Shown here piece after piece: positions 1-57,299 of a stretch of DNA of 64,000 bases. The position numbers and the translations under genes were made by a program. Source of the DNA: Psammoneis japonica (taxonomy: Eukaryota); the NCBI GenBank assembly GCA_008632985.1, contig QPGO01000119.1:62001-126000 (forward strand), in the 5' to 3' direction. Numbering within the stretch: the stretch's first letter is position 1; the number at the start of each line of letters is the position of its first letter. The notes under the pieces are model-generated. The model did no database searches. It had not been told where the DNA came from and saw only the letters and a list, made by a program, of their open reading frames with translations.

Positions 1-10
1 CAAGGCAACC

Positions 11-835
11 ATGAAGCTTTCGACTGGCACAATCCTTCTTGCTGCCTTTGCAGGTCTAGTTTCCTGCGCCAATGGTAAGAATTTGTTGCTGTGATATCTA
101 TCTATGCAAATCATGAGTGTGCATCAAGTCTGACCCCTTGTTTTTGCAATGACTCCTATCATTAGCCCACCGCGATGGCACGGCAGGACTGGAAAAGAGC
201 GAGCAGCAAACGAAACTTCGAAAGGTCCTTAAATATCAGGAAGCAGAGACGCGAAAGAAACTGGACAGTCTTCAGAAAGGAAGAAGTGAAGCAAGCGCAG
301 AGAAATCTGAAGAGGAAAAGTTGTTGACCTTGATCGAAGAGCAGGAACGTGTAAAGGAACACGAAATCAAAAAGAAAGGACAGACCCCAGAAGAAATAGC
401 TGCTGAGGGCAAACTACTGAAGGTGCTCAAATATCAGGAAAACCAGACAAGGGAGAAACTGAGCCAGCTCCATGAAAAAGAAGCCGAGGAATCGGACGAG
501 GAGAAGTTAATGACAATGATTAAAGAACAAGAGAAGAAAAGGAAGAGAGCGAAGCGGAGCCGAGCGAAGCAGAGCCGAGCGGAGCGGAGCCGAGCGAAGC
601 GGAACCAAGCGAAGCGGAACCGAGTGAAGCGGAAGCGAGCGAAGCGGAAGGGACTGAAGTAGAAGAGAGTGAAGAAAAAGAGCCAAAGGGAAGGCCAATG
701 CTCCGCAACCATCCTCACGGTCCCAAGGAGCTACAAGTCAAGCGTCACGTGTTTTGCAGGTTTTGCGCAGAACGTGTCTGCCCCGATCTAAGCCAGGAAG
801 AAGATTGCGTGGAATGCAGGGAAAAATGCGATTGA
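11..835 (+). CDS. Secreted acidic protein: signal peptide, duplicated KVLKYQE coiled-coil unit, (SEAEP)n repeats and Cys-rich C-terminus; one intron, one apparent frameshift
   Basis: ATG at 11 gives MKLSTGTILLAAFAGLVSCA; GTAAG..TAG intron about 75-166; exon 2 joins ORF 321-662. In the 15-nt repeat (545-650) substitutions fall at wobble positions only in the SEAEP frame, which runs to CRFCAERVC...CVECREKCD-TGA(835). This implies a 1-nt indel in the A-rich run near 525-541. Confidence 0.6.
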
Positions 836-1109
836 TTCTACAAGTGCGGGGCAATATTAGATCTGAGTAGATGCTTTTCCGCTAGTGTGTATGTGAGTAG
901 TAGTATGCATTGAGTTCCTTCCTTGAGAGACCACGCTACATAGTGACGCTATTCTACTAGCGTCTTAGGGACCACCGTAAGGTCCTATGCTTTCCCACAT
1001 GTACCCGCATGTAAAAGGCGAGACCTAAATAAATTTCAGAGATGAACACCAGCTGTGCTTCATTCGCAGAAGCACCTTTTACCTTCCACAAGAGCTTTTG
1101 CGGGAGAAG

Positions 1110-1532
1110 TGACCGTGCAAAACTGTTTTTTCTAAATGTTGGGATGTAGAAGTGGTGAAGCCGTGTATGTTGTTTTAGTCGTGGATTCCTTTTTTGGGCT
1201 TAATCTGTGACAGGCACAAATTAATGTCAGGGGTATTTTTTCTCCCAACTCCTCACAGATTAAGTCGGTCCTGTCACAGATTAACTTTTTTTATGGAATC
1301 TTACTTAATCACACCGCTGCCTTTAATCATCCCAAACTGGAGTTTGCTAAAAGTCTCACTCCCTGGCCCCTAACATAAACCCTAAACCCTAACCCTGACC
1401 GTGCAAAACTGTTTTTTCTAAATGTTGGGATGTAGAAGTGGTGAAGCCGTGTATGTTGTTTTAGTCGTGGATTCCTTTTTTGGGCTTAATCTGTGACAGG
1501 CACAAATTAATCTGTCAGGGGTATTTTTTCTC
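1110..1532. repeat. ~135-bp near-identical direct repeat (1110-1244 and 1396-1532) with an internal inverted repeat and a telomere-like CCCTAA tract at the junction
   Basis: TGACCGTGCAAAACTG...GGGGTATTTTTTCTC occurs twice; TTAATCTGTGACAGG (~1200) and CCTGTCACAGATTAA (~1270) are inverted; AAACCCTAAACCCTAACCCT lies at ~1377-1396. Confidence 0.85.
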
Positions 1533-1932
1533 GAATTTATCACAATCATTGTTGTTACGTGAACTTTGTTCGTGCTGATGATGCCACACTCTTCGTGTTC
1601 GAGGCTCAAGTTTAGATCAAGACAACTATCTACCAGTAAACTTAAATTTGTGCCCCTGTTTTAGATCGACGCTAATGCCGGTATGCTGTCAAACAATGCG
1701 TCCTGTACGTGGTAGGTAAACTAGAGCAAACCCATTGATGAAATACCAGAACAACAAATCGCATTGTTGATGCAAACTTCAAGTTATCGTATTGAATTCA
1801 TTATAATAATCATGGAGGATCATTGTAATTGTACATGTTGAATCTTCGGAAAGTATGGTATGATTGTAGATTCAAAGCTACAGTATGCAGAATTTCGCAT
1901 AGAAGCCTAGAATGCATCGAAATTGAAATGAC

Positions 1933-3577
1933 TTAGGAAGCGGCAGCGGCAGCCGCGGCAGGAAGACAACCCCCTTCCTTCACCATGACTTCAAACTCCT
2001 CCAGAATCGCCGGTGCTGCCGGAACGTCCAAGGTCAAGTCGGGTAGAAGCTTGTGCAAGCGACTGAGTCCCTTGGCAACCTGGTACTCCGACACAATGGC
2101 ATTCTTGACCAAGAAGCAAAACAAGGCAGCCATGGCGTCAATAGCCGAGGACGTCTTTTCGGCGTGATCCCGACCGTCCTCTTCCATGGCGATTTTAACG
2201 CCACGTTTCACCAATTCGTGGTGAAAATGCGCCGCTTTCATCTCTCGTACGCACCTAGCGGCTTCATCAAGCTCTCTCGACAAGAGATACTCCTGTGTGA
2301 GGGACAATAGATGCAGGGTTGAAATTAGTGTTCATAAACCACGGCTATCCAACAAACAGATCACCACAATATCAATACGCACCGTGAGCAACTGGTCCAT
2401 TACAGTTTTCAATTCCGCAACAGGCCTTCCATCCCCGGGTCCCCAAATCCTCTCGAGACGGGCCGTACAATGCTCGCGCGACAAGAGACTGACGGCCTTT
2501 TCAATCACGGCATCACCCGGACGATCGTTGTTTTGTTGCGATAAAAAAGCGGGCGGCAAGACCTCATCGACCACCGCCCTGGCCAAGAAGGATCCCACCA
2601 TGATTTTGGCATCGGGAATGTCAATACTCAAGTCATCCAACGATTCCAACAACAGCCCGAATCCCTCCGCCACATTGTCGTCACTGAGCGGTGTCGGATG
2701 AAGACACGTCAAGAGCCGACTCACAAGTTCCCGTTCTCGCGGGCCCTCGTCCAGACTGAGACTTATGGCCCGCTTGACGACTTCGGGATGATACTTGCGG
2801 CACTGTAACTCCTCAATGCTACGAATGACTTCGTCCGCATCGGCCGAATCAAAGTACTCCCGAATGATATCCGCAAGCTGAAGCTTGAACTCGGGCAGCG
2901 TCAACATTGGACCGTAGACGGCCTTTTCCGCGATGGAATCATAGCCGGTTGGATCAACGCCATTGCCGTTTGGAATTTCGCCGTGTTCCGACGAGAGAAT
3001 GTACTTTCCAGACTCGGCCTCTTCCTCGTCGTAGAGCGGGTCGTTCGGGTCTAACGCACCCATGACTGCGTCTTCCGATCCATCCATGTCCTCCTTCCAC
3101 TTGCCCTTGCTAAGAACAAGAAACGATTGTTATTTAATATTCAAACTCATATTGATACAGACAAATCTTATTAAAAACTCACCCATGTCCACCTTGCTTT
3201 TTGTTGCGACTGTCGTATTTTCCCGTTTCCGCCCCATCACTCTTTTTGCGTGTAATGTTTCGACGTGACGATCCCACCTCCTTGACCTTGGTTTCGTGTG
3301 ACATTTCCGCAACTTTAGCCTTGTGTTTTGCCGCCATGGATTGTGCCTGTGAGGAAATGGCACGAACCCCCTCGCCCGTGGGATTGTGGACCTTGCCCTG
3401 CCGCCAAAATGTGAGCAGAACAAGATCATGAGTGCGCGTGACGTGGATTTGAATCATTCGATTGATTCACGCACGCCGAATTCGCACGACGACATGCCAC
3501 CATCATGGATACATACTCACCATGGTCTCCACCGTTACTTCTGGTCGTTTTGAGAACTCTGCCTTGCTTTCCGCCAT
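1933..3577 (-). CDS. PDCD4: Programmed cell death protein 4-like protein with two MA3 (MI) domains; 4 exons (3577-3521, 3397-3183, 3109-2383, 2292-1933)
   Basis: Motifs KKQGGHGKGKW, ALDPNDPLYD, IIREYFDS, VVKRAISLSLD..RERELVSRLL, DLSIDIPDA..FLARAVVDEVLPP, EYLLSRELDEAARC..HFHHELVKR, DLTLDVPAA. Three GT-AG introns restore a single frame. Confidence 0.9.
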
Positions 3578-4999
3578 GATTTATATAAAAAACAATGAAA
3601 GAAAGAGAGAAAACGACAGCACACGCCAATGGCCGGGGTTTTTGAAGGGATCGAAAGCACACGCGGTATGTTCGGATCAAGAAAAAGATTTTTGTGCGCG
3701 ATTTATGACACCGAGTTGATCGGCGTACGTAGGATCCTACACAGGAATTCGTACAAAATGACGCTCTTTTTGACGTCACCATGTCTTCTCATAGCTAGGC
3801 TTCTCACAGAAGAGAAGTGAAACCGTGATGATGCCAAGGATGCTTTGCTCGACAAAAATTCGGATAATCAAAAAGAAAAGCGCTGCAAGAATGAGAGAGT
3901 GCTTCTAACAGTGTGGCAACAATATGGCTCAACCAGAGTCTACTGTAACGAGAAAGATACGCACGAGGATCGATAATAAAGATCACAACTATTTCGAGCT
4001 AGAGTATGCAATTTATGGAATATATGTGAACCAAAACTGTTTGGTACTCCACAAACAATCAATGCCATCATCAAGTTGCAATCAAATATTGATTCCCAGT
4101 CGAATTACGACTGCGTGTCGTCTATTCCATGCTTCCGTCGTCGAGGTCGTTCCACTTTCCTTTTCCACCCCCGCCACCATGCTGCTTCTTCTCCTTTCTA
4201 TATAAAAGAATAAAACAACGTAAAAAAATGTAAAATCAGACATGATGTAGTAGCTTGAATCAATTTTCGAATCTATACTTTTCGTACCTGTTGGGATCGT
4301 GATCATGCTTTCGCGTAATGTTCCTGCTTGCCGAACCCTCCTTCGTTTTCGTTTCTGGAATTGGTTCCTTTCCCTTGTGGTGTTCGCCTCTGTAGAAACA
4401 TTATAGTGAATAAACACAAGTGAGAGGGAAGCATGCACACACAATGTGATTAGCCCAACAAACGCCAACAAGAGCCAATCAGAAAGGAGTGACACCGTCC
4501 ATACGTACGAACGCAACAGTACGTAGAAGGTACGAAAGATTTTTCAGACGCCGACAAGAAACGAGGTTTGAAAGCACGACGAAAACAACAACGAACACAA
4601 TATCCCCGTATTTACATATATACATCTATAACACTCACTCTTTTGGATGAACCATACTGTTTGTTGTTGCTGCTGTTGATTCTTGTTGTTATGAGCCACA
4701 GAAGGAGTGATGGATTTTCGCGTTGTTGATGCGAACTCGCCAGCGAAGATCGAACGTGTCAAAGATTGCGTGGAGCTCGTATTGATTCTACGTGTGACGT
4801 CGAAGAAGGCGATTTCTCGCGATGTCTTGCGCGTTTTTGGCACCTGAGTGAAGCAAGGACTCATTCGACTGGCATTTTGACTTCGCGTGTTCCGCGCGGG
4901 AACTTCAACTTGGAATGAGAACCCCGCGCTCCAACATGATCAGAAAAAACGATGGAACGGACTCGCTGATCGCTGAAGAACAGCACACAAAAAAGAACA

Positions 5000-10282: not shown

Positions 10283-12327
10283 ATGAAGAAGCATCAGCCG
10301 GTCGAAGGAAAGCACAAGAATCCTCACTCCATGGGTGGTGCGAACGAGAATGATGGAGACCAACCGATGCTGTTTCCGGATACGGTTCCTCCCACTCCGA
10401 CCGCCGACCCTCCCAAGCCAAAGAAGACGCGTGAGTTTGAGGACCTGTCAGTGCCCCATGATATCGAGAGAGGGCGAGAAGAAGTCACGACTTTGACTTA
10501 TTCGGACGACGACCAGCAAGACCAACAAGTCTACCGCGGTGTAGCCGCAGCTGCAGCTGGGGATCCAGGTGCATTCAGAGAAGGAGGGCGCCCCAACGCT
10601 GTTGACGATGACACTACCACGTTCACGGCGTCACCAGAGTCTGCTACTGCTGCTCCAAATAACGAGGACCCTCACCGCGTAGTGTCGGCTCATGTCGTCC
10701 AAGAACCAGATATTGTTTCGGCGATAGCTATGCCGGCTGACCAAGCAAGGTGGTGGTCAAAGCGTCGCAATCGTATGATGTTGATTGGGGGCGCTTTGGC
10801 AGTCGTAACTGGCCTTGTCGTGACGCTTGCAGTGGTCTTGTCAGGCTCTGACAATCCTCCTGCCACTTCACCGCCCTCAATGATTCTTCCAAATGCTACG
10901 AGTCCTCCGACTGTCTCCCCAACAGAAACTTCCACGCCCATGACGGGATCGCCCACACCGCCGTCTACAGTTTCGCCTACGTCGCCTTTGACAGTGCAGC
11001 CGACGACCACATCTCCTACGGCTTCACCAACTACACTCCCACCTACTCCGATTCCGACGGTGCAGCCAACGACAATACTTCCGACGCCGTCTCCGACCTT
11101 GCAACCTACCACGCCCTCTCCGACCTTGCAACCCACTACAAGATCTCCAACGCCTCCACCTTCTAACCCGTTAGTCTTTTCTCAGATTGGCACAGACATG
11201 CTTGGAGACGTGTTGGATGACTTGGAGAGTCGATTTCTTTGAGTGCGGATGGAAGCGTGCTTGCCGTCGGAGCACCAGGGGCCGATGACAATGGTGATCG
11301 GTCCGGCCGTGTTCGTGTCTACGCACGAGCAGGTGGAGGATTCTTCAAACTCGGTAATGATTTGATTGGAAGTCGGATTCAAGAGTTTTTCGGCGGATCC
11401 GTTTCATTGTCGGCGGATGGTACAATGCTAGCTGTCGGTGCTTCTCATGGAGGTGGCAGAGGCACTGGAAGCGTGCAAGTTTTTCGTTTGACGGGGAACT
11501 CCTGGAATCAAATTGGCGAAACAATCCTAGGCGACGGGGAGTGGAATTACGCAGGCATTGTCACGATGTCTGGTGACGGTTCGACTATTGCAATCGCAGC
11601 CCCTTCTAACGATGACGGTGGAGAAGTTGCAGGGCAGGTACGAGTGTATGGACTGGTGGGAAATTCCTGGATTAAACGAGGTGCTGATATTGACGGAAAG
11701 GCGCCAGGTGATCGTTGTAGTGCGTCATCATTGTCATCAGATGGAACCATTCTGGCAGTCGGTTGTCCGCAAAATGGTGGTGGGGAATCGGCTCCTGGAC
11801 ATGTTCGTGTTTTTCAGTTTGGTGAGAGTAGCTGGAACAAACTCGGTGACGATATTGTTGGAGAGACTCTCAATGACAGGACGGGTCATTCTGTCTCGCT
11901 TTCAAGAAATGGCGATGTCATCGCCATCTCGACGCCATATGGAAATGGAAGTATAAACTCAGCCCGGGTCTTTAGACTGGTAGGCAGCACGTGGACTAAA
12001 ATTGGCAATGCTGTCTATGGAGAGTCAGGTGACATTGGCAAGGAAGTGTCCTTGTCGGCAGACGGTTCCCTCTTTGCCTTGGGTAGTGTTTCGCGCAGAG
12101 GCGCTGAGAACACAGGCGTTGTTCGTGTGTATGAGCTAGTCAATGAAGACAGCGAGCAGTGGATGCATGTCGGACAAGTCCTGAAGGGCGACAAGGATTT
12201 GGATGATTATGGAGAGGCTCTGTCGTTGGCTGCTAATGCGCCCGTTCTTGCTGTTGGTGCGAACCAAGGAGGCACGCTGGGACTCGGTCCTGGCTACGTC
12301 CGCGTGTTTGAGCTTGGTCAGCAGTAG
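10283..12327 (+). CDS. Type II membrane protein with a Pro/Thr-rich (PTxSP) stalk and an FG-GAP-like beta-propeller; frameshift near 11235
   Basis: TM MMLIGGALAVVTGLVVTLAVVL after KRRNR; TVQPTT/TLQPTT repeats; about seven repeats of SVSLSADGxxLAVGA...GxVRVY/F...W.xxG.DI.G. Confidence 0.8.
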
Positions 12328-12469
12328 CACGCAGCTTTCAGCAAACTGTATCTATTTGTTTCGTCTTTTACATACACATCATGTACTCAGAAGAAAAATG
12401 ATTCTTGCAGGAAACTATACACTTTTAGTTTAGCCTTTGTTTCTGCCTCTATTAACCGTCGTCTCTAGG

Positions 12470-15400
12470 CTTTGCACTGCCGAACTTTGATTTGAACTTT
12501 TGATGGGTCATCAAAAAGGTTTGAGATGCCAATATTTTAGAGGCCAGTCTGGAGCAGCATTGCTGCACTGCATTCTCGCTGCAGAACAGCTGATTTCATC
12601 ATGCTGTGCTGTTCTCTCCACTCAATGCCAATGGGAATCCTGGTGCACACTTTGTCCCAACCAGAAAGTGACTTTCTGTGAGCTCAAGGCCAACTTGCCA
12701 CTCGAAACCATGACAAAAGCAAGCTCCAAACTCTCAAGCTCATTGGCAAGTAAATTGAAGGCCCCATCCCTTCCCATCTTGCAATGTTGCACCATCTGAC
12801 ACATTTTGAGTTGGCAGTTGACAACTTCCTGGGAACATTTCCTGGCAATCTCTCATCACTCAAGCAGATTTTCCACCCCATGCTGCAGTGCAAAATGAGC
12901 TTGACTTTGCACCACAAGTGTCCCAGATCATGTCTGCAATTTTATGAAGCTCCTTGCCTTTGACACTCTGGGGCAAATGCAGCATCACATCATGGCAAGA
13001 TTTCCTCATGCTTTGGGGGTGCACTTCTGAGTCAAGGATGTTGGTCTCGTGTTTGAAGCCCCTTGGGCATTGTGCAGCACACATGACATCAATGGAGTCA
13101 AGCTGAGTTGCGTGGGTGCAAGGGAACTTGTTGTCCTGCTGGACACTTTGGGCCAATTTTGGGGAGAAAGAAAAACAGGCCAACAGCCAGCGTGTCTCAT
13201 GTGTGTGACACCCTCTGATGTCGAGCACATTTTGGAAAGCAATGATGTCATGGCACAAGCTCTGTTGAGTGGCCTGACACCATGCAACACCTTCTCCAAC
13301 AATGGGCCTTTTGCCAAGAAGCTTTGTTCCAGCATCTTCCATCTTTGAGTCTGGCAAATCTGTGCAAAACAAGCACCAAGGAGCACTGCACACTGCAAAG
13401 TGCACAACAATGGTCGAGTGATGCACCTTTTCCCCAAAAAGCACACCAGTCTGAAACAAGCCATGGTGTGATGGGCTTCATGGATTTTTGCATGGGTTTG
13501 TGGTGACCAAAGCAGCAAACCACAGAAGTTGGTTGAAACAGCCAGTGGCTTGCCATTCTTCTCAGGATCTCTGAACACACAGGGGGCTGCTTTTTTCTCA
13601 TCTGGAAAGGGGCAGCTCTGTGCACTCTCATTGTGATTGTTCTGCAAGCTTCAACCAGTCAAAGTCACCACAGCAGCAGCAGCAGCAAATGACTCAACAT
13701 CACTCAGCATCGCGCATGGCTCCTTTCACCTTTGTTTCTAATTTGTTGGCCGATCATGCTCCACACCAAGTTTGCAGAGCAAAGCAGTGGCTTTGGAAGC
13801 TCCTTTTTTGAAAGCTGTTGTGGCTTCATTGCTTTGACAAAGATCGAGTGTGTCTTCTTGAGATTCCTTGCATTGTGATGATGACTGACTGGAGAGAAGA
13901 AGATGCTTGATCTTCATCTTGTTGAACTTCTTGCTTGAGGGACAAAAAATTCTGTTTGACCTCCATTGCCAAAATTGTCCATCAATGTTTCAACAACTGA
14001 GCTGTGCAAATGGTGGCTTTGTGACAGCTCTTTTTTTGAAAGGCGCCCGTGCTGCACTGCTGCCTCAACAAAGATCAAGTTTGTTCAAACAGCATCCTCT
14101 CCAGACTTTGTCCTGTTGGCCAACTGGAGAGGAGAAGACAAAATGTGATGAGATCATCTTCATCATGTTGAGCTTCTTGCATGAGGGGCAAATTCTTTCA
14201 CCCAAGCTCCTCTGCCACCAAGTTCATTGTCAACATTTTTGCAGCTGAGTTGCGCACAGTCTTTTGGACAGAAAAGATCTCACATTGGCATGGCTTGAAA
14301 TTGTGCGAAAAATCATGTGGTGTTTTCAAGAGATTTCGAGGAGAAAAATGGAAAAAAGAGATCATCAAGAAGGTTGGACACATTCACAAAATTGTCGCCA
14401 GCCATCTCCTTTTGCACTGATTTTTGCGCAACACCAAAGTTCTTTTTGTCATGCTGTGGAAAGTTTCACAGAACTCTCAGTGCACAATGTGATGTCATCA
14501 TCCTTGTCACATCATGATGTGCGCTGCTGCCAACAAATCTTCACTCTTGGTGCCTTTAAAAGAGACAAGCACTTCAGAAGAAAAATTGACACCTTTTGAA
14601 ATTTCCAGCACCTCCTTTAAAAATTCTGCATTCTGACAAATTCCAAGAGACCACTGTCTGTGCTCAGCACCCAATGATGGAGTGACAGCACCACAATGGT
14701 GCAAATGCCATTCACAGAGTGCAGAGGAGGTGCACGGTCAAACACAAGCTCCTCGCCAAGAGATTCAGCCACGTGCCAGACTGCCTCCATTGCGCTCAAT
14801 GAACGGCATTTGTGCTGCTGTTGTTTTGTTCACATGGTGTGCACAAATGCTGGTGGGGCTGTCTTTTTTTCCACAAACAATGACCCCACTGTGCGATTGA
14901 GCAAAAAAACATGTCTCATTTGTGCGGGAGAGGTGCTTTCTGCAAACATGTGTGAAATTCTGCAGTGCTCAAAGCTCAAAGTTGCTGGATTTTTAAGTTG
15001 TTTGTAAAAGGTGCTGGAAATGTGAAAGGTGCTGACTTTTTGGTGGTTTTTCAAAAGGGGTGCTGATTTTTAAAGGTGCGAATCACAGCGCCATCCGGTG
15101 CCAGCACGACTGCTTTCTTGTTCCAGCCAGCAGAGACCCGTCCACGACGGCTTGCTGGCCATTGATGACAAAGATGAAGCGACCATCATGTGTTTTGTGT
15201 GTGCTGTCGATGTTCGACGTTGCTTGCAACCGAGATGCTCTCTCTCTCTCTCTCTCTCTCAAACTCTCTTCTACAAAATGTGCAAATGATGTTGCATCAA
15301 CGATCGACGACTCCACTGGTGCTGTGCCGACTCCCTCCTCTCGAGCTGATGGCGAGTGCACGGGAAAAAGACACCCAAACGCATTGACGTGCAGACATTG

Positions 15401-15471
15401 TGGATTGATGTTTGCTGGGCCTCATCGCATCGCACTCATCACTCATCACTCATCGCATCAGCATAAAGCCG
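12470..15471. mobile_element. Degenerate repeat-derived block, depleted of TpA and CpG (possibly a non-LTR ORF1-like relic on the minus strand)
   Basis: About 7 TpA in 12540-15010, almost all in TTA/TAA. Dense overlapping Cys/His/Gln-rich ORFs on both strands; abuts the copia insertion. Family assignment is weak. Confidence 0.55.
15238..15260. repeat. (CT)n microsatellite
   Basis: CTCTCTCTCTCTCTCTCTCTCTC read directly. Confidence 0.9.
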
Positions 15472-15476
15472 CAGTC

Positions 15477-15823
15477 TGTGGGAAAGCAGCCAGAATTCTA
15501 AGATTCGTCTGCACTTTCAGTGACCAAAAGCTGCAATTGCGATGCAACAATCAATCAGTGACTTCATTGCACCAAAAGTTGAGAGGTGATGATCAGTGCG
15601 TTAGAAAGATCATGAGCAGTTTTTATGAGCAGATGCAGCTGCCATCTAAAGGAAACGCGAAGTTAAACAAGCGCGAAGCTGGGAACAAACATCGCATTCG
15701 TGACTCGGCTTCCGCGGGATTCGAGACTGAGCATCGCACATGGGGTTCGAATCTTGGATCTCTGATTTGAATCGTGGAGGTCCGATGTTGTTGTAAAAAC
15801 ATGCAAATGTGAGTGTTGTCACA
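15477..15823 (-). repeat. 3' LTR
   Basis: TGTGGGAAAG...TTGTCACA; 16 substitutions versus the 5' LTR; PPT (plus-strand CTCCCTTC) at 15824-15831. Confidence 0.97.
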
Positions 15824-18800
15824 CTCCCTTCAACAATGTCGGGTGGAATGATGACTCGAAAACGTCTTGCCACTTAAGGAGCGATTTCCTGTGTTTAACG
15901 AAGAGATTCTGTGGCAGAGGTTTGGTGAAAATGTCTGCAATCTGATCCGCCGCATCAATTGGTGGGATTGATGTGAGACCTTTGCGAACATGGTCTTTAA
16001 AGTGGTGGAGAGTGAGGTTGAAGTGTTTTGTCCGAGGACGCATCTTGGGCAATCTCGCGATCTCCAATGCTCCAGAATTGTCTTCAAAAGCCTCACAATG
16101 TACGACTGGTGTCTTGGAAGGGACATTATGACCGTGATCCATAAATTCTTGAATGAGGTTCATAATTGGGATGGCGCTTCGAAGACTTTCCGAAAGAGCG
16201 ATAAATTCAGCTTCAGCAGTGCTGAGCGCGATCTGAGTCTGTAGCTTGGACGTCCAGACAATCGGACATCCTGCATGGGTGATGACAAACCCAGTTCGAG
16301 ATTTGGAAGTGCCGACGTCATTGGGTGCAGTCAGCTTATTCCAATTGCCCACAAAGTCCGCGTCGGCGTGAACTTCAAGGGACTTGTCCGTTGAGGGCTG
16401 TGGCACAATGCCTTCAGTTCTGGTTGACCTTAGGTGCTTACAGAGCCACAGTGCGGCTTCACCGTGAGAAACCTTGGGATCGGAAGAAAAGCGTGCGACT
16501 TGGTGCACCGCGCAAGCGACATCCGGTCGAGTGCTCTTCTCCAGAAAATTGAGCTTGCCGATGATGGATCGGCAATGAAAGCTCCCTTGGAAAGCAGGCT
16601 CACTCACATGCCTGTGGAGGATCTTGGAGGAAGGAGCAGGAGCAGACTTGTCTGGCAGTCTCTTTGGAACATTGGCCATCTCCAGCATCTGATTGACAAG
16701 GTGAGGTTGGGCAAGTTTCGTTCTGCCATCTGGCAGTGTCTCGACGTTGACACCGAGATAGTCGTCCAGAGTGCCTTGATCATCAACATCAAAATTCTCA
16801 TCTCTGATGTCCTGTGTCGCCTTGTCAATGGCAGACTTGTCAGGGGATGCAAAGATGCCGTCATCGACATGATGAGTGAAAATGACATTGCCACGAAAAC
16901 ACAGGCACTCATCAACCGCCGATTGTACGAAACCAATCCTTGACAATCCATCACGCAAGTGTTCTTGCCATGCTCTCCCTGCTTGCTTCTGTCCATGTAA
17001 GTTCTTGAGCAACTTCAGAACATGAGTCTTGCCATTGCCACATTTTGTTTCAATTCCTGCAGGCAACTCCATGCACATGTCACATTCGATGTCGGCATGC
17101 GGATGCGCCAGAACGAAGTCGACTTGGCGTGCATGCCACTTCTTAAGAATGGCAATGATCAGCAGGAGCCGGACAGTGAACCAGAAGACCACGGCAGAGC
17201 AGGTCTGGAAGTGGTTGACAGCATGCTCTTGCTTTCCGCCGTGCACATTAAGTCGGGACTTCCATTTGTAGACGGCTTGGGTCTTGATGTCTCTTTTGCG
17301 CTTCATGGACCACACCGAAGGGAGAACATCAACATCGTCAGGTACGTTCTCTCTTGGAATGAGCATCCAATGTTTCCTTTCAACATGATCATTGACCTCC
17401 TTAACACAGGCCTTGACAAATTCGTCTCTGTCAGGTTCACGCACAGCCTGATCAAAGTGCATGGTGTCGGGGTCCGAGCTCGCCAGAAAAGAGACAGGTG
17501 AGTCCATGTCGTCCTGCAGTTTGTAATCATCCTCGTGCATCGCATCACAATGTGCCTCTGCCTCTGCATTGTAGGAGACAATGCCTTGAGCCCGTTGTAG
17601 TTGGCTCTCGCGCATCCTTTCGGTCGGGCGTCGTTGTCGGCCGGACCTGCTGGTGCTGGGCTGACCCACAGTGCGCTGTGGCTCAGATGGTGCGTCAGAA
17701 TCATCTGGAGGCATGTGTGGCATTTCGTCATCCGGTTGGGCATTGTCAAATGAGTCATCAGTGGTGGACGTATCAGTGGGATGCAGCAGCTGAGACGGGA
17801 CATCCGAATTCGGCTCAGGTGGTTCCGTTGTGGTGGGGACTGATCCCTCAACCGGTGCGTCACTTGATTTCCCAAAGATGTTGAAAGCACTCCTTGTCTT
17901 GAGTTGTCTGAAACCTGCAATGCCTTGCCATTGTGAGAATGTAGGAGGATTCCCAGCAGATGGACGAACGGTCTCAAAGAAGTCGTCAAATTGCACGTGA
18001 AATTGCGGCGACACGAGTCCGGTCTGCAAATTCAAAACCAAGGTAACTGAACCTGCGTGTCTTGTTGATGGTCCCAAATTGATTCCTGACCTTGCCCTTG
18101 GGTCCCACTTAGGCAGCCTACCTCCTCCCTGCAACCGATTGTGCAAGGCGTAGACGGGACAGCCGAAGGCATGGTGTTGTTTGAGATTGGGCTGGACCTT
18201 GACGGACGAGAAACGTTCCAGCGGAGAAGAACCGTCCTCGTGATTCGGCAAGTGATTCTTGATCTCGTTTGAGTTCCTGAGAGCGCTTGGCCATAAGTTC
18301 AACTCAACAGCCGTTGGCCATCTCACTTTTGCATGCAGGAGTTGCTTCCGAGATTGCTCTTGGAGGTCCCTTGTTCTTTTCTCCGCGATGCCGTTTTGGA
18401 AGTGGGCGTTGACCCCACAACAGGATGTTGTTTGCTGTTGCTTCTTGACGTCTTGCATGAAAGCATTGTCAGCAAATCTTCCATTGTCGGCGTGGCAGTG
18501 TTGAATGTGGACGTGCATCCGGCGTGCGAATGCCTCGAAAGCGTGCTTGGCTTCGAGCGTCTCGGCTGAGGCAAGTCCTTTCTGCAAATGTGTGCATCCC
18601 AATCCGCTGAAATGATCAACAAAAATTGTCGCTGCTCGATGCCTTTGTTTCGCAGGTCTCCCTTTGAGCTGTGGGATCAATCCAGGAGCAGGACTCTCGA
18701 GCTGGTCGACGGATGCGGCTTCTCCAGGCGAAGTTGCCAAGTGGATTCGTCGGTTCCGCTTGGACTTGGAGCGCCATGGTCGTTTCGTCATGGCACCGTG

Positions 18801-19940
18801 TGGGCAGCCGGCACATTTTGGGTTGTGTGCCTTTGTAAGGCGTTTTGGTAGAATGCCTGGGGCGGCCAACAGCTTTGTCATTTTGAATGACATGTGGCCC
18901 AGGCGGCAATGCCAACGCAATGGTTCACCCTGGTCATCTGTGGCAGCAAGGGCGTCATCATTTGGCATGATGTTGATGGGTTCCGGCAAGTCCTGCTGCA
19001 CCTCCGGTGTCGTGAAATCCCTTGGGTTTTCCTCGTCTGAGTCTGAACGACTTGCTCCGTCTGTTGGCTCAAATGAGACAGGAGCATCCTCATCAGTGGT
19101 GTTGCGTGCGTCTTGCGTCTCGGAAGGACGTGTCTCGGATGGACTTCTGAAGACGTCTGTGTCAATTGCAGCCTCGTCATCATTCGCAATGCTCTCGTCG
19201 TCTGGTGGTATGATGTGAGCTTGACAGGCCACGTGCTCGATAGTTTCGATGTCGGTTTGTTCTTCGACAGCGGCTGCAAAGGTCCGGCATTTGTTGGAAC
19301 CGGGTGCGGAGCGCATCTTGGCGACATTAGAGTTGGCGGACCATGGAATCAGGCGATGGCACTTGCGCTGGTCCCACATCAGCAACAGTCCGTCGTCCCC
19401 AGTCCAAGGTGCGGTTCCGTGAGGCTCTGGCGTGTGGTCATTAGCTTGCTGGCTCCATTGCTGCGGGCAGAGAAGACAATGAGGTAAGTCGGGTGCATAG
19501 AGTGCGTCTCGAATTTTAATGCTGTGCACTTGTCCCATGTCGTCCTCAATTGCCCACTGCACTGTTCCTTCTCCCTCAGCACGCAAGTGGCCCTTGACAC
19601 CGAGTGCCACTTTGTTGGATTTGCGAAGAGGACCAATGAAGTGTGCCTCGTCGTTGGACATGGTGCAGGAAGAATGCGAGTCGACACCGATTGCGAATGA
19701 GTCCGAATCGTAAGTGGGCTCCGTTCGCTCGGGACGGTGTGGTGTGGTTGAGTTGTACGCTCCAACCGTCTTGCATCGCGTAATGACACAGTGAGCCTTC
19801 TTGGTGGCCACTCTGGAGCGGTGACCTGGCCTCGTCGACGTATGACACCGTGCGCAGCACCCTCGTCGTTGGCCGTCGCTGGTGAGTCTTAACTCGTCTT
19901 GTGCCTGGTTCAGCCAGGATGTGTGAGATGACCCACTCAC
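15819..19940 (-). CDS. Copia pol polyprotein (protease, integrase, reverse transcriptase, RNase H); frame open but probably inactivated by missense changes
   Basis: IGVDSHSS (PR); WHCRLGH...C..C (GAG-pre-integrase/zinc finger); VDQLES, HADNG, QNGIAEK (DDE); RQVDF, KNLHGQKQAG, HVDDGI (RT); HADADF, STAEAEF, EDNSGA, ADIFTKPL (RH). Confidence 0.95.
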   Translation of the reverse strand: MSGSSHTSWLNQAQDELRLTSDGQRRGCCARCHTSTRPGHRSRVATKKAHCVITRCKTVGAYNSTTPHRPERTEPTYDSDSFAIGVDSHSSCTMSNDEAHFIGPLRKSNKVALGVKGHLRAEGEGTVQWAIEDDMGQVHSIKIRDALYAPDLPHCLLCPQQWSQQANDHTPEPHGTAPWTGDDGLLLMWDQRKCHRLIPWSANSNVAKMRSAPGSNKCRTFAAAVEEQTDIETIEHVACQAHIIPPDDESIANDDEAAIDTDVFRSPSETRPSETQDARNTTDEDAPVSFEPTDGASRSDSDEENPRDFTTPEVQQDLPEPINIMPNDDALAATDDQGEPLRWHCRLGHMSFKMTKLLAAPGILPKRLTKAHNPKCAGCPHGAMTKRPWRSKSKRNRRIHLATSPGEAASVDQLESPAPGLIPQLKGRPAKQRHRAATIFVDHFSGLGCTHLQKGLASAETLEAKHAFEAFARRMHVHIQHCHADNGRFADNAFMQDVKKQQQTTSCCGVNAHFQNGIAEKRTRDLQEQSRKQLLHAKVRWPTAVELNLWPSALRNSNEIKNHLPNHEDGSSPLERFSSVKVQPNLKQHHAFGCPVYALHNRLQGGGRLPKWDPRARSGINLGPSTRHAGSVTLVLNLQTGLVSPQFHVQFDDFFETVRPSAGNPPTFSQWQGIAGFRQLKTRSAFNIFGKSSDAPVEGSVPTTTEPPEPNSDVPSQLLHPTDTSTTDDSFDNAQPDDEMPHMPPDDSDAPSEPQRTVGQPSTSRSGRQRRPTERMRESQLQRAQGIVSYNAEAEAHCDAMHEDDYKLQDDMDSPVSFLASSDPDTMHFDQAVREPDRDEFVKACVKEVNDHVERKHWMLIPRENVPDDVDVLPSVWSMKRKRDIKTQAVYKWKSRLNVHGGKQEHAVNHFQTCSAVVFWFTVRLLLIIAILKKWHARQVDFVLAHPHADIECDMCMELPAGIETKCGNGKTHVLKLLKNLHGQKQAGRAWQEHLRDGLSRIGFVQSAVDECLCFRGNVIFTHHVDDGIFASPDKSAIDKATQDIRDENFDVDDQGTLDDYLGVNVETLPDGRTKLAQPHLVNQMLEMANVPKRLPDKSAPAPSSKILHRHVSEPAFQGSFHCRSIIGKLNFLEKSTRPDVACAVHQVARFSSDPKVSHGEAALWLCKHLRSTRTEGIVPQPSTDKSLEVHADADFVGNWNKLTAPNDVGTSKSRTGFVITHAGCPIVWTSKLQTQIALSTAEAEFIALSESLRSAIPIMNLIQEFMDHGHNVPSKTPVVHCEAFEDNSGALEIARLPKMRPRTKHFNLTLHHFKDHVRKGLTSIPPIDAADQIADIFTKPLPQNLFVKHRKSLLKWQDVFESSFHPTLLKGV

Positions 19941-20127
19941 CCAGCGTCATTGCGGCATGTGACAGGCGCTTACACTTTTCTGAAGGAAGGGACAGCATCA
20001 TGAACAGCAGTGTGATCCAGATCGGTGCTGCACATTTCATGACGCCAGCGACCGCCATCAGGAGCACTGACACAGTGACAGCCATCTGCAAGGACAGCAG
20101 CAGTGTCAGAGTGAACCTGCAGAGCAG

Positions 20128-21633
20128 TCACTCTTGATCCACTTCGTTTAGGATGGTGGAGATAGCACTTGCGAAGGAGACTTTCTTGTCCGACGTGTCT
20201 GTGGATGGAGCAGACTGTTGCTTGCGGAGTCTACAGCCTTGGTTGCCCGGATCATCAGGTGAGTGTATGACCCAAGCAGTGTGACATGGGCACCAGTGAC
20301 AGTCGCGATTGTTGACGTGCTTGTGACAGTGCTGATGACCGTTCACTGTCTTCTTAGGAGCGTCCTCCTTGGGGCGGGACTTTCTTCCAGGCTTCGTCCG
20401 CTTTCTGTCTCTGACGTGGAGTGGTCTTGGTCTTCCTTGACCGTGTGCTTCGTTCCTTGGTTGAACCAGCCTTGGCCTTCAAAGCTTTAGACAGCTGAAG
20501 GTTCTGATCCTTGATGGAGTCTACCTTGGCTGTAAGCGCGACGATTTGCTCTTCAGCCGGTGACAGTGCTCCCCACTTCTTCTCGCGCTTGAGGTTAGTG
20601 TGTTTGTTCAGTGCCAACGTCATGATTTGCGTCGGCGTGAATTCCTCACCGTCGTCGCACCTGTCCTTGTGTGACATGATGTGCTTGACGAATGCTTCGT
20701 CAGCAGCTGCGGCGCATCCTTTGAATGGGTTCATGACAAGGTCGTCGCACTGCTCTCCTCTAGCTTGGAGTCCGTCAACGTTGAGCTTGGCGCACTTGTT
20801 GAACTCTTCGATGTCCGAGTTGACAGCCGCCATGTGCGCATCCAGGCTTGACAAGTTCTCGCGGAAGTAGTTGGTGGTGGAGCGTGTGTCAACGATGGCC
20901 TTTTGCGTAAGTGGCTTGAAGAATAGTGTGCCGATTTGATTTCCATTGATCGCATGGGAATCTATCTCAGCCAACATCTTGTCTCTTGCTTCTTCTGTAA
21001 GGGATTGAGAGATCGCCTCAGCCATCTGCACATTGTTCTGTGCTTGTCGCGTAGGCAGATTCGCGAAGGTGTTCGCGTGGGTTCTGACATCCTGTAGAGT
21101 GAGCAGTCCGTACTCGGAGATAAGATCTCGTGGAGTTCCATTCGCGTCGGGAATGGCAAGCATGTCTCCTGCCCCTGTTTTCCATCCTGCCTCGGCAGCT
21201 CGTTGACTGAGTGTCTCACAAAACCGTTTGAGACCTTCTGAATCGCCGTTAAACTCGTGTGGCAGCGGTGCAGCAGCGGCGTTCCAAAGCTTGAGGCCTT
21301 GCGATGTGCCGCAGTCGATGAAGTTGTTGGGACGGTGTTGACCTGGAGTCAACGCGAAGATCGGCAGTGGTGGCACAGGTGCCAATGGTGGTCCACCTGG
21401 CGGGACTCCACCTGGTGGGACTCCACCTCCGCCTCCTCCTCCACCTCCTCCACCACCTCCTCCTGGAGGTACACCGGGAGGAACGACTGGGGAGGTACAG
21501 GAGCAACTGGAGCGGCTGCAGGAGCAGGTGCTGTTGCCGGAGCAGCAGCAGTGGCAGGAGCTGCAGCGGGTGCAGCAGCGGGAGCTGCAACAGAGGCAGC
21601 TAGAGCAGCCGCGGTTCGTGTCTGCGTGACCAT
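20128..21633 (-). CDS. Copia gag, in three frames (21349-21633, 20354-21385, 20128-20346)
   Basis: ATG 21633, 75 bp from the 5' LTR, with an Ala/Pro-rich N-terminus; FALTPG...LISEYG.LT...RQAQNN..M; ALTAKV coiled coil; WCPCHTAWVIH...C knuckle-like motif; ends DQE-TGA. Confidence 0.85.
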
Positions 21634-21707
21634 GGTAACAGCAGAGTAAAATAGAATCGAGAGCTTAAGATCGATTGACTTAACTTGTAGGTTTCGCAGA
21701 GGAAGCG

Positions 21708-22054
21708 TGTGGGAAAGTAGCCAGAATTCTAAGACTCGTCTGCACTTTCAGTGATTAAAAGCTGCAATTGCGATACAACAATCAATCAGTAACTTTATTG
21801 TACCAAAAGTTGAGAGGTGACAATCAGTACGTTAGAAAGATTATGAGCAGTTTTTATGAGCAGATGCAGCTGCCATCTAAAGGAAACGCGAAGTTAAACA
21901 AGCGCGAAGCTAGGAACAAACATCGCATTCGTGACTCGGCTTCCGCGGGATTCGAGACTGAGCATCGCACATGGGGTTCGAATCTTGGATCTCTGATTTG
22001 AATCGTGGAGGTCCGATGTTGTTGTAAAAACATGCAAATATGAATATTGTCACA
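21708..22054 (-). repeat. 5' LTR
   Basis: Colinear 347-bp copy of 15477-15823, followed by the CAGTC TSD. Confidence 0.97.
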
Positions 22055-22143
22055 CAGTCCTCCGATCTCTGATCACCGAACTAATTATTGTTCTGCCACA
22101 TCTTCGAACTGCTCCTGCGGCACAGATAAACCTGCGAAACACC

Positions 22144-22983
22144 ATGTCAACTAGCTCAGGCGCAACGATAAGCACCAAGAACGGCCGGATGTTCAACTGG
22201 TCTTTACTCGAGAATGCGACCATCCTCGAGCAATGTCGAACAGCACTTGGAGATGATGGTGCCATGATGATTCGAAATTTTGCATCACCCGAGGGGATAC
22301 GACTTCTCAAGGATGAGATTATGTCGTGCCCGTACAATGAATCAACTCAGTACTACACCTGCTGGCAAGATCAGGGCGATGATAAATATCCGCCGTCTCA
22401 TCCGCGCAACTTTATGATTCATGCATCCGCATCCTTTGTGGGGAGGAAATCGTTGGAAGAAACCAGCAATCGATTAGGAATATCTCTTTATGAGGATGAT
22501 CGATTGTTACGCTTTCTTTCGGAGGTTGCTACCAAGCCACTGTACAGATCGACCGATTAAAATGGGTCTGTCTATTCGTATCGGATACACGACAAGCACA
22601 AGGCGCCTTGGCACTTTGACGAAAGTCCCTACACTGCAATTATCTATCTACAAAATAGCGAAAATGGGGGAGAGTTTGAATATGTACCATGGAGTAGACC
22701 CACTCTCGACAAAAATGACACGCAGGGTCACGATATTGTGCGACAAGTTGTCATGGAGGGAAAGGTTGATAAAGTGAGAAGCATCCTTCCCAAACCTGGC
22801 ACGCTCATCTTCTTTTCAGGAGCACACAGCTTTCATAGAGCTGCTCCAGTTACTGGCCCGACTGTGCGGTTAGGTCTTGTGTTTACGTTTGGATTGGACG
22901 ATGCCTTTGCCAATTCTGATTCGGTTCACGCGGCAAATGAATGGAATCCTGTCAATGCGTCTCGACTAATCAAACATGGATGA
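22144..22983 (+). CDS. 2-oxoglutarate/Fe(II)-dependent oxygenase (BesD/HalD-like fold, HxD type); frameshift near 22555
   Basis: After the frameshift: PWHFDESPYTAIIYLQNSENGGEFEYVP...PGTLIFFSGAHSFHRAAPVTGPTVR (HxD...H...R). Starts 90 bp from the 5' LTR. Confidence 0.8.
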
Positions 22984-23244
22984 GGAAGACTAATCGATGT
23001 CTCTGTTTTCCTATGAGTAGCAAGTAGAGAGCATACGTCGAGTGTGCAGTTGAGAGTACTTGCAGTCAGCTCTTTTTCTTCAAAGCACAAAAGGGGCGAC
23101 ACACAGGCTATAGCAATCACAATTCGCGTTTATACCTGCTTGAAACGTCGTAAACCCACGAATGCAAGACTGTTAAAGCTATTTTAAGTGTCCCGATTTA
23201 TTTCCAACTGCTTGCTATACCGACTCGGTGACCGGCTGACTTAT

Positions 23245-24244
23245 TCAAACGACCACTACCGACATGTTACCCTGGGCAAGATGGTCGTTCAGTAATGGTG
23301 TCTGGCTATCTGTCTCTTGGCTGCTGCTTGCGTCGTCGTCCTTACTCACATCTTGTTTCAATGCAGCCAACCCCTTGCCTTCTGCTCTGAGCCTCCACTC
23401 CAAGAACGCAATTGTACGCACAACCGCCATGGTTGGATAATAGATGATACCAACCAAAGCTCTGTAGAAAACGCTGTACTTTAGGAAAACGCCTGGTCCC
23501 CACTCTTCTTCGAAACCCTCAATGGCCGACACATTTAAATAAAATAATACACATGAATGGTACCCTAGGAACACAAGGGCACAGACCCAAACAAAGGGTG
23601 AGTTAATACTCCCTGGATAGAGCTGGCGGGCCCGTTTCAGAGCTTGACCAGCCGACTTGTTTTCGATCATTACAGCAGGAGCAGCAGTCAGACACAACCC
23701 AAACTGAATATAAATGCTCAAAACAAAAACCAACAGCAAAGAGAGCATAGTCCACCAAAAGAATTCAAACCGATCGATTTTTTGATTTTCAACCCAGTCC
23801 CAGTCCCTGGACTTGTCCGTCAGTGTCGGAAAGCTGATTGCAAGTGCAAGATAGGCAGTGCAAATGACAGAGCACCCTACCGCGTTGACCAAGCACAATG
23901 GGATTGTACGGCGGAATGCGTTTTTCCAGCACGTTGCTGGAATTGGCTGGCGTTCAACCAGAATTGTAGCTGCAAGGGAAACCATGGCTCCTTCCGAGAT
24001 GGATTGAATCGTTGCATCCGCCAACATGTTCAACGCCCCAAATAAAAGAAGGAGGGAAACTCCATGGGCCCACATCTCGATGTTGTCCCTATGCTTCATG
24101 TAAAGGCTGACGAAATAGGAGCAGAAAGCAGTCATAGTGGGGACAAGAAGCAACAGGTACCACCTTGCCATCCGAATAAAGAGGGGTGCTTGATCAAATA
24201 GGCGCCCCAACATTGTTCCCGTCGACATGTGGTTAGAAGCTTGT

Positions 24245-55685: not shown

Positions 55686-57155
55686 TTAAGCAACGTTTTC
55701 TTTCGAAGGTCTCCCATTGTAACGTATTCTGGATCCTTGTTCTTCATCCCTTGTCTCGCTGTTTGCGTCGTTCAATGCAACCGGTGGCATGATTTCATCA
55801 GGCATGATTTCGCCATCGTCGCCTGCCACCACCGTGTATTGTGTACTCGTAGGTCCTGAATGCCTCACAGTGCTCCAGCACGCAAAAACGTACACCCCCA
55901 CCATGGTGCGCACCGTGCTCATCCAGCCAAAAACGTGAACAACAATTGTTAGTAAAATCAGCACAAAAGCAACTCTTAACAACCAAAAAATGCATCTTTG
56001 TGGACCACGCATTAGTTGTCTGTTGTACTCGGTATTGTCCTCAACCACACGAGTGTTCAAAGAGGGCTGGAGTAGTGCCGTTTTGGTTTCCTCGTGAGTC
56101 TTTTGATCTGCATCCACTTGCATTTCAAAAACGACCAAGCCTGAGTCATGCCCAGCCGCCACTAGATTGCGAGCATTCGAACCATGACCGACGTCAAGGC
56201 TCCAAAATCTTCCCATGTTATCCGTTTCAGTAGGTTGAATGGTTTGAATCGGGTGGTCACGCATGCCAGTGAAGATGCCGGCATTAGGGGTTGGAGTCTT
56301 CCAAATGCGGATAGTGGCATCTTCACTGGCACTCAGGAGCACATCTTGTGTAGGATGAAATATGCAGCAAGAGACATTGTGGGAGTGTCCGTGAAGAGTG
56401 CCGACTTCCGAGGCCTCGGTTTCACTCATGCGCCACAGCTTGACTTGACCTCCGTCGGCCGCCGAAGCCCCAAGCGGCAAGGTTGGGTGAAAGGCTGCCC
56501 AGTTGACTTGACTATCGTGTCCCTCCAAGACTCGCTTGACGACAACCTCATTGGTAGCAGAAAGTCCTTCTTTTGCTCCGGTGGCCTCTTCAGCCTGCTT
56601 CTTGCGTAAGCCTCCCGTATCCCAAAGTTGAACCGTCCGATCTAGCGATGCAGAAAAGATCAAGTCTTTCGTGGGATGGAAGGTAGCACACATCATGTAA
56701 TGATTTGTGCCCCCAACGAACAACAACTGGCGACTCTCAGAATCCCAAATCCGAATTGACATGTCATCCGAAGCGGACACAATCCAGGGCAGCTGGGGAT
56801 GGAACTGCACCGATCGAATGTAGTCGGCGTGCGCGTCACGAATAGTGTAGATTCCTCGTTTCGTTTCATAATCCCACACCTTGATCTTGAAGTCGTCTCC
56901 TCCAGACACAAGGAGAGGCTCTGTTGGGTGAAAATCCAAGGCTCGGACTGGAAGCTTTGTACGTGCATGTACGAAGCGAACGACGAGCTCTGGCCGTTCG
57001 TAGTTCCAGACCTGCACCACGCCATTGTACAAAGCAGCAGCCAAGAGTGCCTGCGGATTATTGCTGATGCTCGGGAGAAAGCGGACGCACTTGACACGTG
57101 CGGATCGCATTTCGAAGACAACGGGGGTGAAGTTCTTGTCGGGGGGCGTCACCAT
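55686..57155 (-). CDS. Coatomer alpha (alpha-COP) N-terminal WD40 propeller fused to a C-terminal region with two predicted TM helices
   Basis: [126 protein letters not shown]; then [23 protein letters not shown]...[10 protein letters not shown]. No introns. Confidence 0.85.
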
Positions 57156-57299
57156 GGTGTACGGCGTCCATAACACACCGCAGTTCTTACTGATGATGAT
57201 TGATGAAATAATGGATCATGTCATGGATGGATCGTCGTAATCCGCGTAACGCGCAACATTCATACATCCGCGGTTCGTGGTTCGCATGGCCGGATACAA

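Follow-up and report, generated by a model that had tools for sequence, protein, structure and literature searches.

Evidence for TpA-specific A:T>G:C hypermutation of a Ty1/copia-type retrotransposon in Psammoneis japonica after its integration

The stretch of Psammoneis japonica DNA described here, referred to below as the window, comprises 64,000 nucleotides (contig QPGO01000119.1, positions 62,001 to 126,000 of the forward strand; positions below count from the first base of the window). It contains a complete Ty1/copia-type long terminal repeat (LTR) retrotransposon on the minus strand, in which TpA is scarce and both CpA and TpG are in excess. We conclude that the DNA of this element has very probably been subject to a regional, strand-symmetric and TpA-specific A:T>G:C hypermutation after integration. 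The substitution spectrum, its direction, the post-integration timing, the strand symmetry and the regional gradient can all be read from the sequence. The footprint matches that described in a preprint on Bigelowiella natans (bioRxiv 10.64898/2026.01.13.699255), of which it would be a second example.

In the process that we propose, a DNA-level activity would act on the element after its integration and would change T:A to C:G almost solely within TpA. Both strands would be attacked about equally, so that TA would become either CA or TG. Because the codons TAY, TAA and TAG all contain TA, Tyr would be replaced by His or Cys, and stop codons would be erased. Similarly, Leu encoded by CTA would become Pro, Ile encoded by ATA would become Thr or Met, and TAA would become CAA, while no stop could be created. 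Where the third base of a codon is T, the next codon would be open to change at its first position, leading to replacements such as Ile>Val and Thr>Ala.

Timing and strand symmetry of the changes

Both LTRs of an element derive from a single template and are identical at insertion. In this element, the 3′ LTR (15477–15823, minus strand) and the 5′ LTR (21708–22054, minus strand), both 347 bp long and bounded by TG...CA, matched each other at 95.4% in a blastn self-comparison. All 16 differences between them were transitions, and 13 of these had TA in one LTR versus CA or TG in the other. The number of TA dinucleotides was 17 in the 5′ LTR versus 6 in the 3′ LTR, and CG occurred 17 times in both. 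Since the LTRs differ at TA-type sites, the changes postdate integration, and the DNA was altered in place. At one site, the 5′ LTR had TG and the 3′ LTR had CA. The changes outside TA lay in ApA or, equivalently, TpT contexts. None of the 17 CpG dinucleotides differed between the LTRs, while 13 TA-type changes arose. GC-biased gene conversion was considered as a cause and rejected, as it is not dinucleotide-specific, yet 13 of the 16 LTR changes were at TpA.

The possibility that the element was already mutated when it inserted, through RNA-level A-to-I editing (ADAR-like or fungal TAD-like) of the transcript before reverse transcription, has two points in its favor. Adenosine deaminases acting on RNA prefer a 5′ U or T, as is also argued in the Discussion of the B. 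natans preprint, and the 5′-T preference observed here matches that of these enzymes; furthermore, retroelements pass through an RNA stage. However, editing of the template predicts identical LTRs, rather than the TA-type differences and unequal TA counts described above. Editing of a sense transcript would also give A>G alone, whereas T>C was about as frequent as A>G: the replaced tyrosines of pol are divided between eight His and seven Cys, and the 3′ LTR has seven T>C and five A>G changes. The ratios of observed to expected counts (o/e) of CA and TG in the element were equally raised, both at approximately 1.4–1.5. In addition, adjoining blocks and the flank outside the element have been mutated too. 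We therefore find an RNA-level origin hardly credible, and consider the changes to have been made in the integrated DNA.

Direction of change and the affected proteins

The first-pass annotation of this sequence had proposed that TA is the ancestral state, and three lines of evidence, from homologs, from the LTR pair and from other copies of the family, agree on this. The pol protein had 1127 relatives at E ≤ 0.001. The 120 that were listed, all metagenome or genome proteins of about 1200–1500 aa, are 49–65% identical to it. Alignment of all 120 gave 20 conserved Tyr columns, at which this copy has 8 His, 7 Cys and a single Tyr. In comparison, 117 of the 120 homologs have at most one His or Cys at these columns. 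The three affected homologs, denoted P0004, P0002 and P0024, have 13, 11 and 7, respectively, against 15 in this copy. The choice between His and Cys differs column by column among this copy and the three homologs. Such differing choices at shared TAY codons point to independent mutations and not to an inherited functional variant.

As first reported, the pol open reading frame (ORF) (15819–19940, minus strand; 1373 aa) encodes only eight Tyr (0.58%). It has 73 His (5.3%) and 32 Cys (2.3%), and the corresponding medians for the 120 homologs are 3.4% Tyr (minimum 0.76%), 3.8% His and 1.55% Cys. Host ORFs in the window have 0.8–5.0% Tyr and a TA o/e of 0.44–0.69, compared with a TA o/e of 0.19 for pol. 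A pol consensus was derived from the homologs of at least 1150 aa, of which 99 were aligned and 98 used, P0002 being excluded for showing the same anomaly. Columns with a consensus of at least 80% were considered conserved, which gave 365 columns in pol. This copy departs from the consensus at 40 of them, and the departures are concentrated, as had been anticipated, on tyrosine: 14 of the 15 Tyr columns are changed versus 26 of the 350 others (Fisher p = 4.9e-14). At the 14 changed Tyr columns, the residue is now His (six), Cys (five), Ser, Phe or Leu (one each), and Ile is changed at 7 of 11 conserved columns. The classes of replacement predicted from TA>CA/TG make up 20 of the 40 changes; the other 20 (e.g., Ala>Ser three times, Pro>Ala and Gln>His) represent ordinary divergence. 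The codons in pol are CAY for His, TGY for Cys, CCA where Leu became Pro, and ACA or ATG where Ile became Thr or Met, respectively. A codon ending in T stands before each of the three Ile>Val codons and each of the two Thr>Ala codons.

The altered pol motifs that had been quoted in the first-pass annotation (HVDD, LHG, HCRS, VACAV, WHCRLGH, HCHADNG, NHFQTCS and MCMELP) are all present and fall on consensus Tyr columns. Tyr is found in 99% of the homologs at the LHG and HCRS columns, in 95% at the VACAV column and in 91% of the 98 homologs at the HVDD column. The last of these is the Tyr of the reverse transcriptase motif YVDD, replaced in this copy by His (codon CAT at 16869–16871, minus strand) and in P0002 by Cys. 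In gag, which had 2698 relatives at E ≤ 0.001 with a best identity of 47%, nine of the ten conserved Tyr columns defined from 138 homologs are changed (three Cys, three His, and one each of Trp, Phe and Ala). The previously noted gag motif NPFKGC indeed combines two such replacements, L220P (codon CCA; Leu in 93% of homologs) and Y224C (Tyr in 96%).

Other copies of the family were seen in contigs of run X1, which were compared with positions 12000–24000 of the window. There were 294 differing places, of which 269 were transitions, and at 187 places the window has C or G where the reads have T or A. Forty of the differences were displayed. The element accounts for 26 of these, among which 21 have TA in the reads and CA or TG in the window. 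At the displayed sites, the family reads have TAT or TAC in place of CAT or CAC (five cases) and of TGC (two cases), as well as CTA for CCA, ATA for ACA and GTA for GCA. The summed word depth in X1 was about 60–110 on the flanks and 700–2950 inside the element; these values are not a copy number, but the raised depth inside the element indicates that the family is multi-copy in that sample. Relatives carrying the identical His and Cys residues, which had been named beforehand as the observation that would speak against TA being ancestral, were not seen at the visible places.

A scarcity of TA could also be an inherited and selected property of the element's lineage, gained, for example, through escape from a TA/UA-directed nuclease, in which case the His and Cys residues would be functional. 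Under-representation of UpA and TpA is common in genomes and viruses, and the host genes of the window are also somewhat short of TA (o/e of 0.44–0.69). However, the tyrosines have been kept in 117 of the 120 homologs, while this copy has lost residues conserved at 98% or more, among other things the Tyr of the YxDD motif, and its stop codon. Moreover, the abundant family copies in the same sample have TA at the listed sites, and the LTR pair of this single copy is not identical. We give selected avoidance of TA next to no credence, and return to mutation of the integrated copy.

The pol stop codon had been suggested to be erased by a TAA>CAA change after LLKW. Of 99 homologs, 92 end exactly at the W/F/Y column of LLKW, and at position 15869 the X1 family contig has A where the window has G (plus strand), corresponding to TAA in the sense direction. 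In this copy, the site of the family's stop is occupied by a CAA codon, Gln1358 (15867–15869, minus strand). The reading frame then runs on into the LTR, as had also been described: the CAA is followed by 15 codons and by a TGA made up of bases 3–5 of the 3′ LTR. These observations directly confirm the suggested erasure of the stop. Readthrough past the usual C-terminus, by about 93 residues, is also seen in P0002. When the codons of the standard code were enumerated, no single A>G or T>C made a stop from a sense codon, and five of these changes removed one. In the opposite direction, C>T or G>A, as in repeat-induced point mutation (RIP) or APOBEC editing, creates five kinds of stop.

The expectation that the reading frames would stay open was borne out only in part. 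The pol frame is long and no stops have been created, but the coding region is divided among several frames, which differ for the N-terminal part of gag, gag itself, a zinc-knuckle-like piece and pol. From 21664 onwards the frame of gag is free of stops but contains no ATG, the sole upstream ATG being in another frame; the gag ORF itself (20354–21385, minus strand), found in the ORF list and by homolog search, comprises 343 aa counted from a TTG. Between gag and pol, the frame map shows an open segment with a Cys/His-rich, zinc-knuckle-like stretch (20131–20478, minus strand), which occupies a second frame and is closed by a TGA. The pol frame, open from 19946 to 15822, is the third. Relative to the family contigs of run X1, single-base indels are found at 21488, 20372/20375 and 19860, where the frame must change: at 21488 the family contigs are one base longer, and at both 20372/20375 and 19860 they are one base shorter. 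All the frame-breaking indels sit in short runs of C or G, and may be either real slippage mutations or residual long-read consensus or assembly errors. This copy is presumably non-functional, and the earlier suggestion that such elements are disabled by missense is a reasonable one, although a structure- or domain-based pipeline would very probably still call it intact.

The TA-poor part of the element, from 15819 to 21650, contains 13 further ORFs (113–228 aa), which use other frames and the opposite strand. Such ORFs are to be expected because TAA and TAG have become rare, and they are a likely source of spurious gene calls.

Assignment of the element to the Ty1/copia type is based on its ends and on its domain order. 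The direct TG...CA LTRs are flanked by a 5-bp target site duplication, GACTG in the orientation of the element, with identical bases in the downstream copy at 15472–15476 and the upstream copy at 22055–22059 (both minus strand). A purine run (GAAGGGAG) adjoins the 3′ LTR. The pol ORF includes a beta-barrel/protease region, integrase-associated domains, an RVT_2 reverse transcriptase and an RNase H region. Its Pfam matches are in the copia order, with Pol_BBD at residues 86–162, gag_pre-integrs at 332–382, SH3_retrovirus at 583–653 and RVT_2 at 865–1091 (101 bits against a cutoff of 31.6; 8.7e-29). The RVT_2-type reverse transcriptase thus has the integrase-associated domains upstream of it, corresponding to the order protease, integrase, reverse transcriptase and RNase H. 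The Pfam model of the integrase core, rve, had no match in pol, and is likewise missing from the precomputed domains of the homologs. Apart from the LTR pair, the blastn self-comparison detected no further copies within the 64-kb window.

Regional pattern in the window

A 1-kb sliding map revealed six low-TA blocks with sharp edges in the 64 kb, with an o/e below about 0.3 compared with 0.45–0.95 in host DNA. Five of the blocks, at 12.4–14.5, 42–44.3, 50.6–55, 57.3–60 and 62.8–64 kb, have a TA o/e between 0.00 and about 0.15, and TA is completely absent from the 1-kb windows that start at 51001, 51501 and 52001. In these five near-TA-free blocks, CA and TG are raised to 1.7–1.9, and the CpG o/e is 0.09–0.45. 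ORFs from two of the near-TA-free blocks had no Pfam match.

The element adjoins one such older block with its more mutated 3′ end. This block (12400–15476, no strand assigned) is nearly without TA (o/e of 0.01–0.19 in the sliding map) and CG-poor (0.12–0.6). Along the sequence, the TA o/e is 0.10 in the left flank, 0.24 in the 3′ LTR, 0.19–0.21 in pol, 0.32 in gag, 0.59 in the 5′ LTR and 0.62 in the right flank, so that the 5′ LTR is near the host background. The damage thus declines from the 3′ LTR beside the older block to the nearly untouched 5′ LTR. In the oldest blocks CpG has been depleted as well (o/e of 0.09–0.4), but not in the element (o/e of 0.75–0.97). The element keeps its CpG, and no CpG differs between the LTRs; the loss of TpA is therefore separate from CpG decay and faster.

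There is some indication of a flanking-base preference. TA half-sites were preceded by T in 4 of 42 converted sites versus 70 of 194 survivors (p = 4e-4). In the 3′ LTR, all six surviving TA dinucleotides were in TTA or TAA, versus 4 of the 11 converted ones (p = 0.03). The numbers in this test are small, and the converted set consists of the displayed subset of places. We tentatively conclude that TTA and TAA sites survive better, which would reflect a preference of the process for certain flanking bases.

The same region showed additional features in the contigs of runs X1 and X2, which come from the same sample. One contig in each run joins position 12344 to position 22810, skipping 10,465 bases, in which the entire element and the older TA-free block are located. 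This contig has 23 differences in the part that lies on 12032–12344, and the junction could represent a divergent allele or paralog without the transposon island. The X2 contigs skip pieces of 70–113 nt of the element between 17336 and 21265, and of the 15 joints listed, 9 are bounded by GT..AG on the plus strand, which is antisense to the element. The X2 depth was uneven, with 0 over 12.8–16.8 kb, 200–700 over 16.8–21.6 kb and 7–20 on the host flanks. Judged from these joints, the skips look like spliced antisense RNA; run X2 is not on record as RNA.

Between two of the TA-free blocks is a WD40 ORF (55686–57176, minus strand; 496 aa), which has a TA o/e of 0.44 and 2.2% Tyr, and is not visibly hypermutated. 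Its similarity is confined to the N-terminal propeller of coatomer alpha (homolog residues about 5–325, at about 50% identity). Its relatives came from a length range that excludes full-length coatomer, and the rest of a coatomer gene was not found in the window.

An assembly or base-calling artefact is the rival explanation that we take most seriously. Modified TpA in silenced DNA might have been misread by a long-read base caller, with polishing then failing in the repeat. The frame-breaking 1-nt indels, all located in short C or G runs, are like long-read consensus errors, and only a fraction of 0.45 of the element's sampled 31-mers was present in run X1, although the flanks match perfectly. 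However, an X1 contig (word depth 61) is identical to the window, with no differences, over 12000–13690, including 1.3 kb of near-TA-free DNA. This point is weakened by the possibility that run X1 was itself used to polish the assembly. The Tyr>His/Cys signature is also found in P0002, P0004 and P0024 and in a metagenome contig, L048 (see below), which come from other sources. Furthermore, strand-specific miscalls at the palindromic TA should presumably give CG, but no LTR site has TA versus CG, and CG is not enriched. In B. natans, the corresponding events were called from Illumina data. Taken together, these observations make an artefact very unlikely.

Several points nevertheless weigh against a TpA-specific hypermutation of the DNA. 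Contexts other than TpA account for 3 of the 16 differences between the LTRs and for 5 of the 26 listed within the element. The analysis is based on one assembly and on contigs of runs from a single sample, which are possibly the assembly's own data. Finally, the variants specific to this copy were not seen in X1, with the same fraction (0.45) of its sampled 31-mers being present there. Missing words are to be expected for one mutated copy among many, because contigs drop rare variants, and the word deficit in X1 therefore neither supports nor refutes the exact sequence of this copy.

Chemistry, spread and relation to known systems

We infer that the hypermutation serves as a host defence against silenced or foreign DNA. 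The leading candidate for the chemistry, as hypothesized in the B. natans preprint, is that an enzyme deaminates adenine to hypoxanthine within 5′-TA-3′; an ADAT2/TadA-like deaminase is a candidate effector. The same genomic process could instead be directed at thymine, by a TET/JBP-type oxidation to 5-hydroxymethyl- or 5-formyluracil that mispairs with G and leads to T>C. At TpA, T>C is indistinguishable from A>G on the other strand. 5-Formyluracil is mutagenic towards T>C, and in dinoflagellate DNA, 5-hydroxymethyluracil is found preferentially in TpA. Nothing in the sequence favors oxidation of thymine over deamination of adenine, however, and the changes in ApA/TpT contexts fit both. We regard the thymine-directed route as unlikely, but as a chemistry to be reckoned with, and continue with adenine deamination as the leading one.

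Comparable footprints were found in other data. P0004, P0002 and P0024, from NCBI and ENA sources, are the 3 of the 120 pol homologs that are Tyr-poor and His/Cys-rich. Among 79 related metagenome loci, one, the microbial-mat contig L048, had the footprint. Positions 1–4773 of this contig, which carries a copia element of 36% identity, have an overall TA o/e of 0.16, CA/TG of 1.43 and CG of 0.98. Along the contig, TA ranges from 0.06 to 0.19 (0.34 in the last 773 bases) and CpG from 0.88 to 1.29, and there is no Tyr at 25–28 reference Tyr positions. Judging from these sequences, the footprint is rare and recurs in independent data sets.

It is tempting to regard TpA hypermutation not as peculiar to one chlorarachniophyte but as a genome defence that is widespread among marine microbial eukaryotes and that tracks chromatin domains. 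It would act on integrated retrotransposons after insertion, spread from silenced neighbors, proceed much faster than methyl-CpG decay and leave 'zombie' elements, with frames that remain open or become even longer through the loss of TAA and TAG, and a DNA adenine deaminase would be its effector. We put this forward tentatively, our confidence in it being a little short of even. If it is true, the three unrelated database proteins and the mat contig would mark further host lineages. Independently of this, dead copies would retain long ORFs and be accepted as intact by domain-based tests, because the process makes no stops and deletes TAA and TAG; intact elements and genes would then be overcounted in such genomes. 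TA-free DNA also yields long spurious ORFs on both strands. Tyr-poor, His/Cys-rich transposable element proteins and maps of TA o/e provide cheap screens for further hosts and, subsequently, for the enzyme.

RIP, known from Neurospora and other fungi, consists of C>T changes, for the most part CpA>TpA, through which TpA is generated, the GC content falls and CAA, CAG and TGG are converted to stops. The process proposed here resembles RIP in producing transitions in one dinucleotide context, in repeated or foreign DNA and in place, and in that both can leak into neighboring sequence. In contrast to RIP, TpA is destroyed, GC rises and no stops are possible. Fungal RIP was accordingly rejected as the cause of the pattern, as the direction is the opposite, with TpA lost and CpA and TpG gained.

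APOBEC3 acts on the minus-strand cDNA during reverse transcription, and its changes are strand-asymmetric, precede integration and make stops (TGG>TAG). The context-specific, deaminase-type transition footprints that its G>A changes leave in retroelement copies are similar to the footprint described here, which differs in being symmetric, post-integration and stop-free. ADAR, known from metazoans, has RNA as its substrate. Hyper-editing by ADAR of repeat-derived double-stranded RNA shares with the present case the A>G change and the preference for U or T before the edited base, but the differences between the LTRs and the equal frequency of T>C on the sense strand set the two apart. The decay of CpG through 5-methylcytosine likewise feeds CpA and TpG, and is present in the oldest blocks of the window. 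The TpA process is faster and separate from it, as is also seen in L048, where a TA o/e of 0.16 is accompanied by a CG o/e of 0.98.

In full-text literature searches, the B. natans preprint was the only report found of this type of mutation. A term search of Maumus et al. 2009 (PMC2806351) found no mention of RIP, dinucleotide, point mutation, YVDD or degenerate. According to the preprint, 231 of 302 nuclear point mutations in B. natans mutation-accumulation lines were in two integrated viral regions, and all but one of the mutations in these regions were A>G or T>C, the GC-biased ones all being at TpA (bioRxiv 10.64898/2026.01.13.699255). The same text describes the targets as integrated giant-virus and virophage DNA, mutated at about 1000-fold the background rate, and reports that TpA-poor coding sequences are enriched in reverse-transcriptase and DDE domains; Mettrop et al. 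2026 propose an ADAT2-like DNA adenine deaminase as the agent (bioRxiv 10.64898/2026.01.13.699255).

The element described here shares the main properties of that system. The mutations are nearly all A:T>G:C transitions (16 of 16 between the LTRs; 269 of 294 relative to the family contigs), they occur at TpA on either strand with a minority in other contexts, and discrete blocks of the sequence are affected. Both cases thus combine near-exclusive A>G and T>C changes at TpA on both strands, a loss of TpA with a gain of CpA and TpG, and a restriction to blocks of foreign DNA, outside which the genome behaves normally. The host is apparently not the B. natans reference, as no protein was above 60% identity to a complete 359-aa host epimerase ORF, whose first named match came from a Bacillariaceae MAG at 45%. 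From these matches, we conclude only that the host genome has no deposited proteome. If it is not B. natans, this would be an independent second case of a 'reverse RIP', extended from integrated viruses to LTR retrotransposons.

The two cases also differ in several respects. Here, the process is deduced from standing sequence, whereas de novo events were measured in B. natans. The target is an LTR retrotransposon, whose own LTRs date the changes as post-integration; the LTR pair serves as an internal clock that splits pre- from post-integration events, which the viral case lacks. Consequences at the protein level are visible here, and the loss of TpA can be separated from CpG decay, both of which are new. 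Finally, unlike in B. natans, the changes form a gradient away from an older, saturated block, and the blocks of this window reach down to zero TA, with CpG lost there as well.

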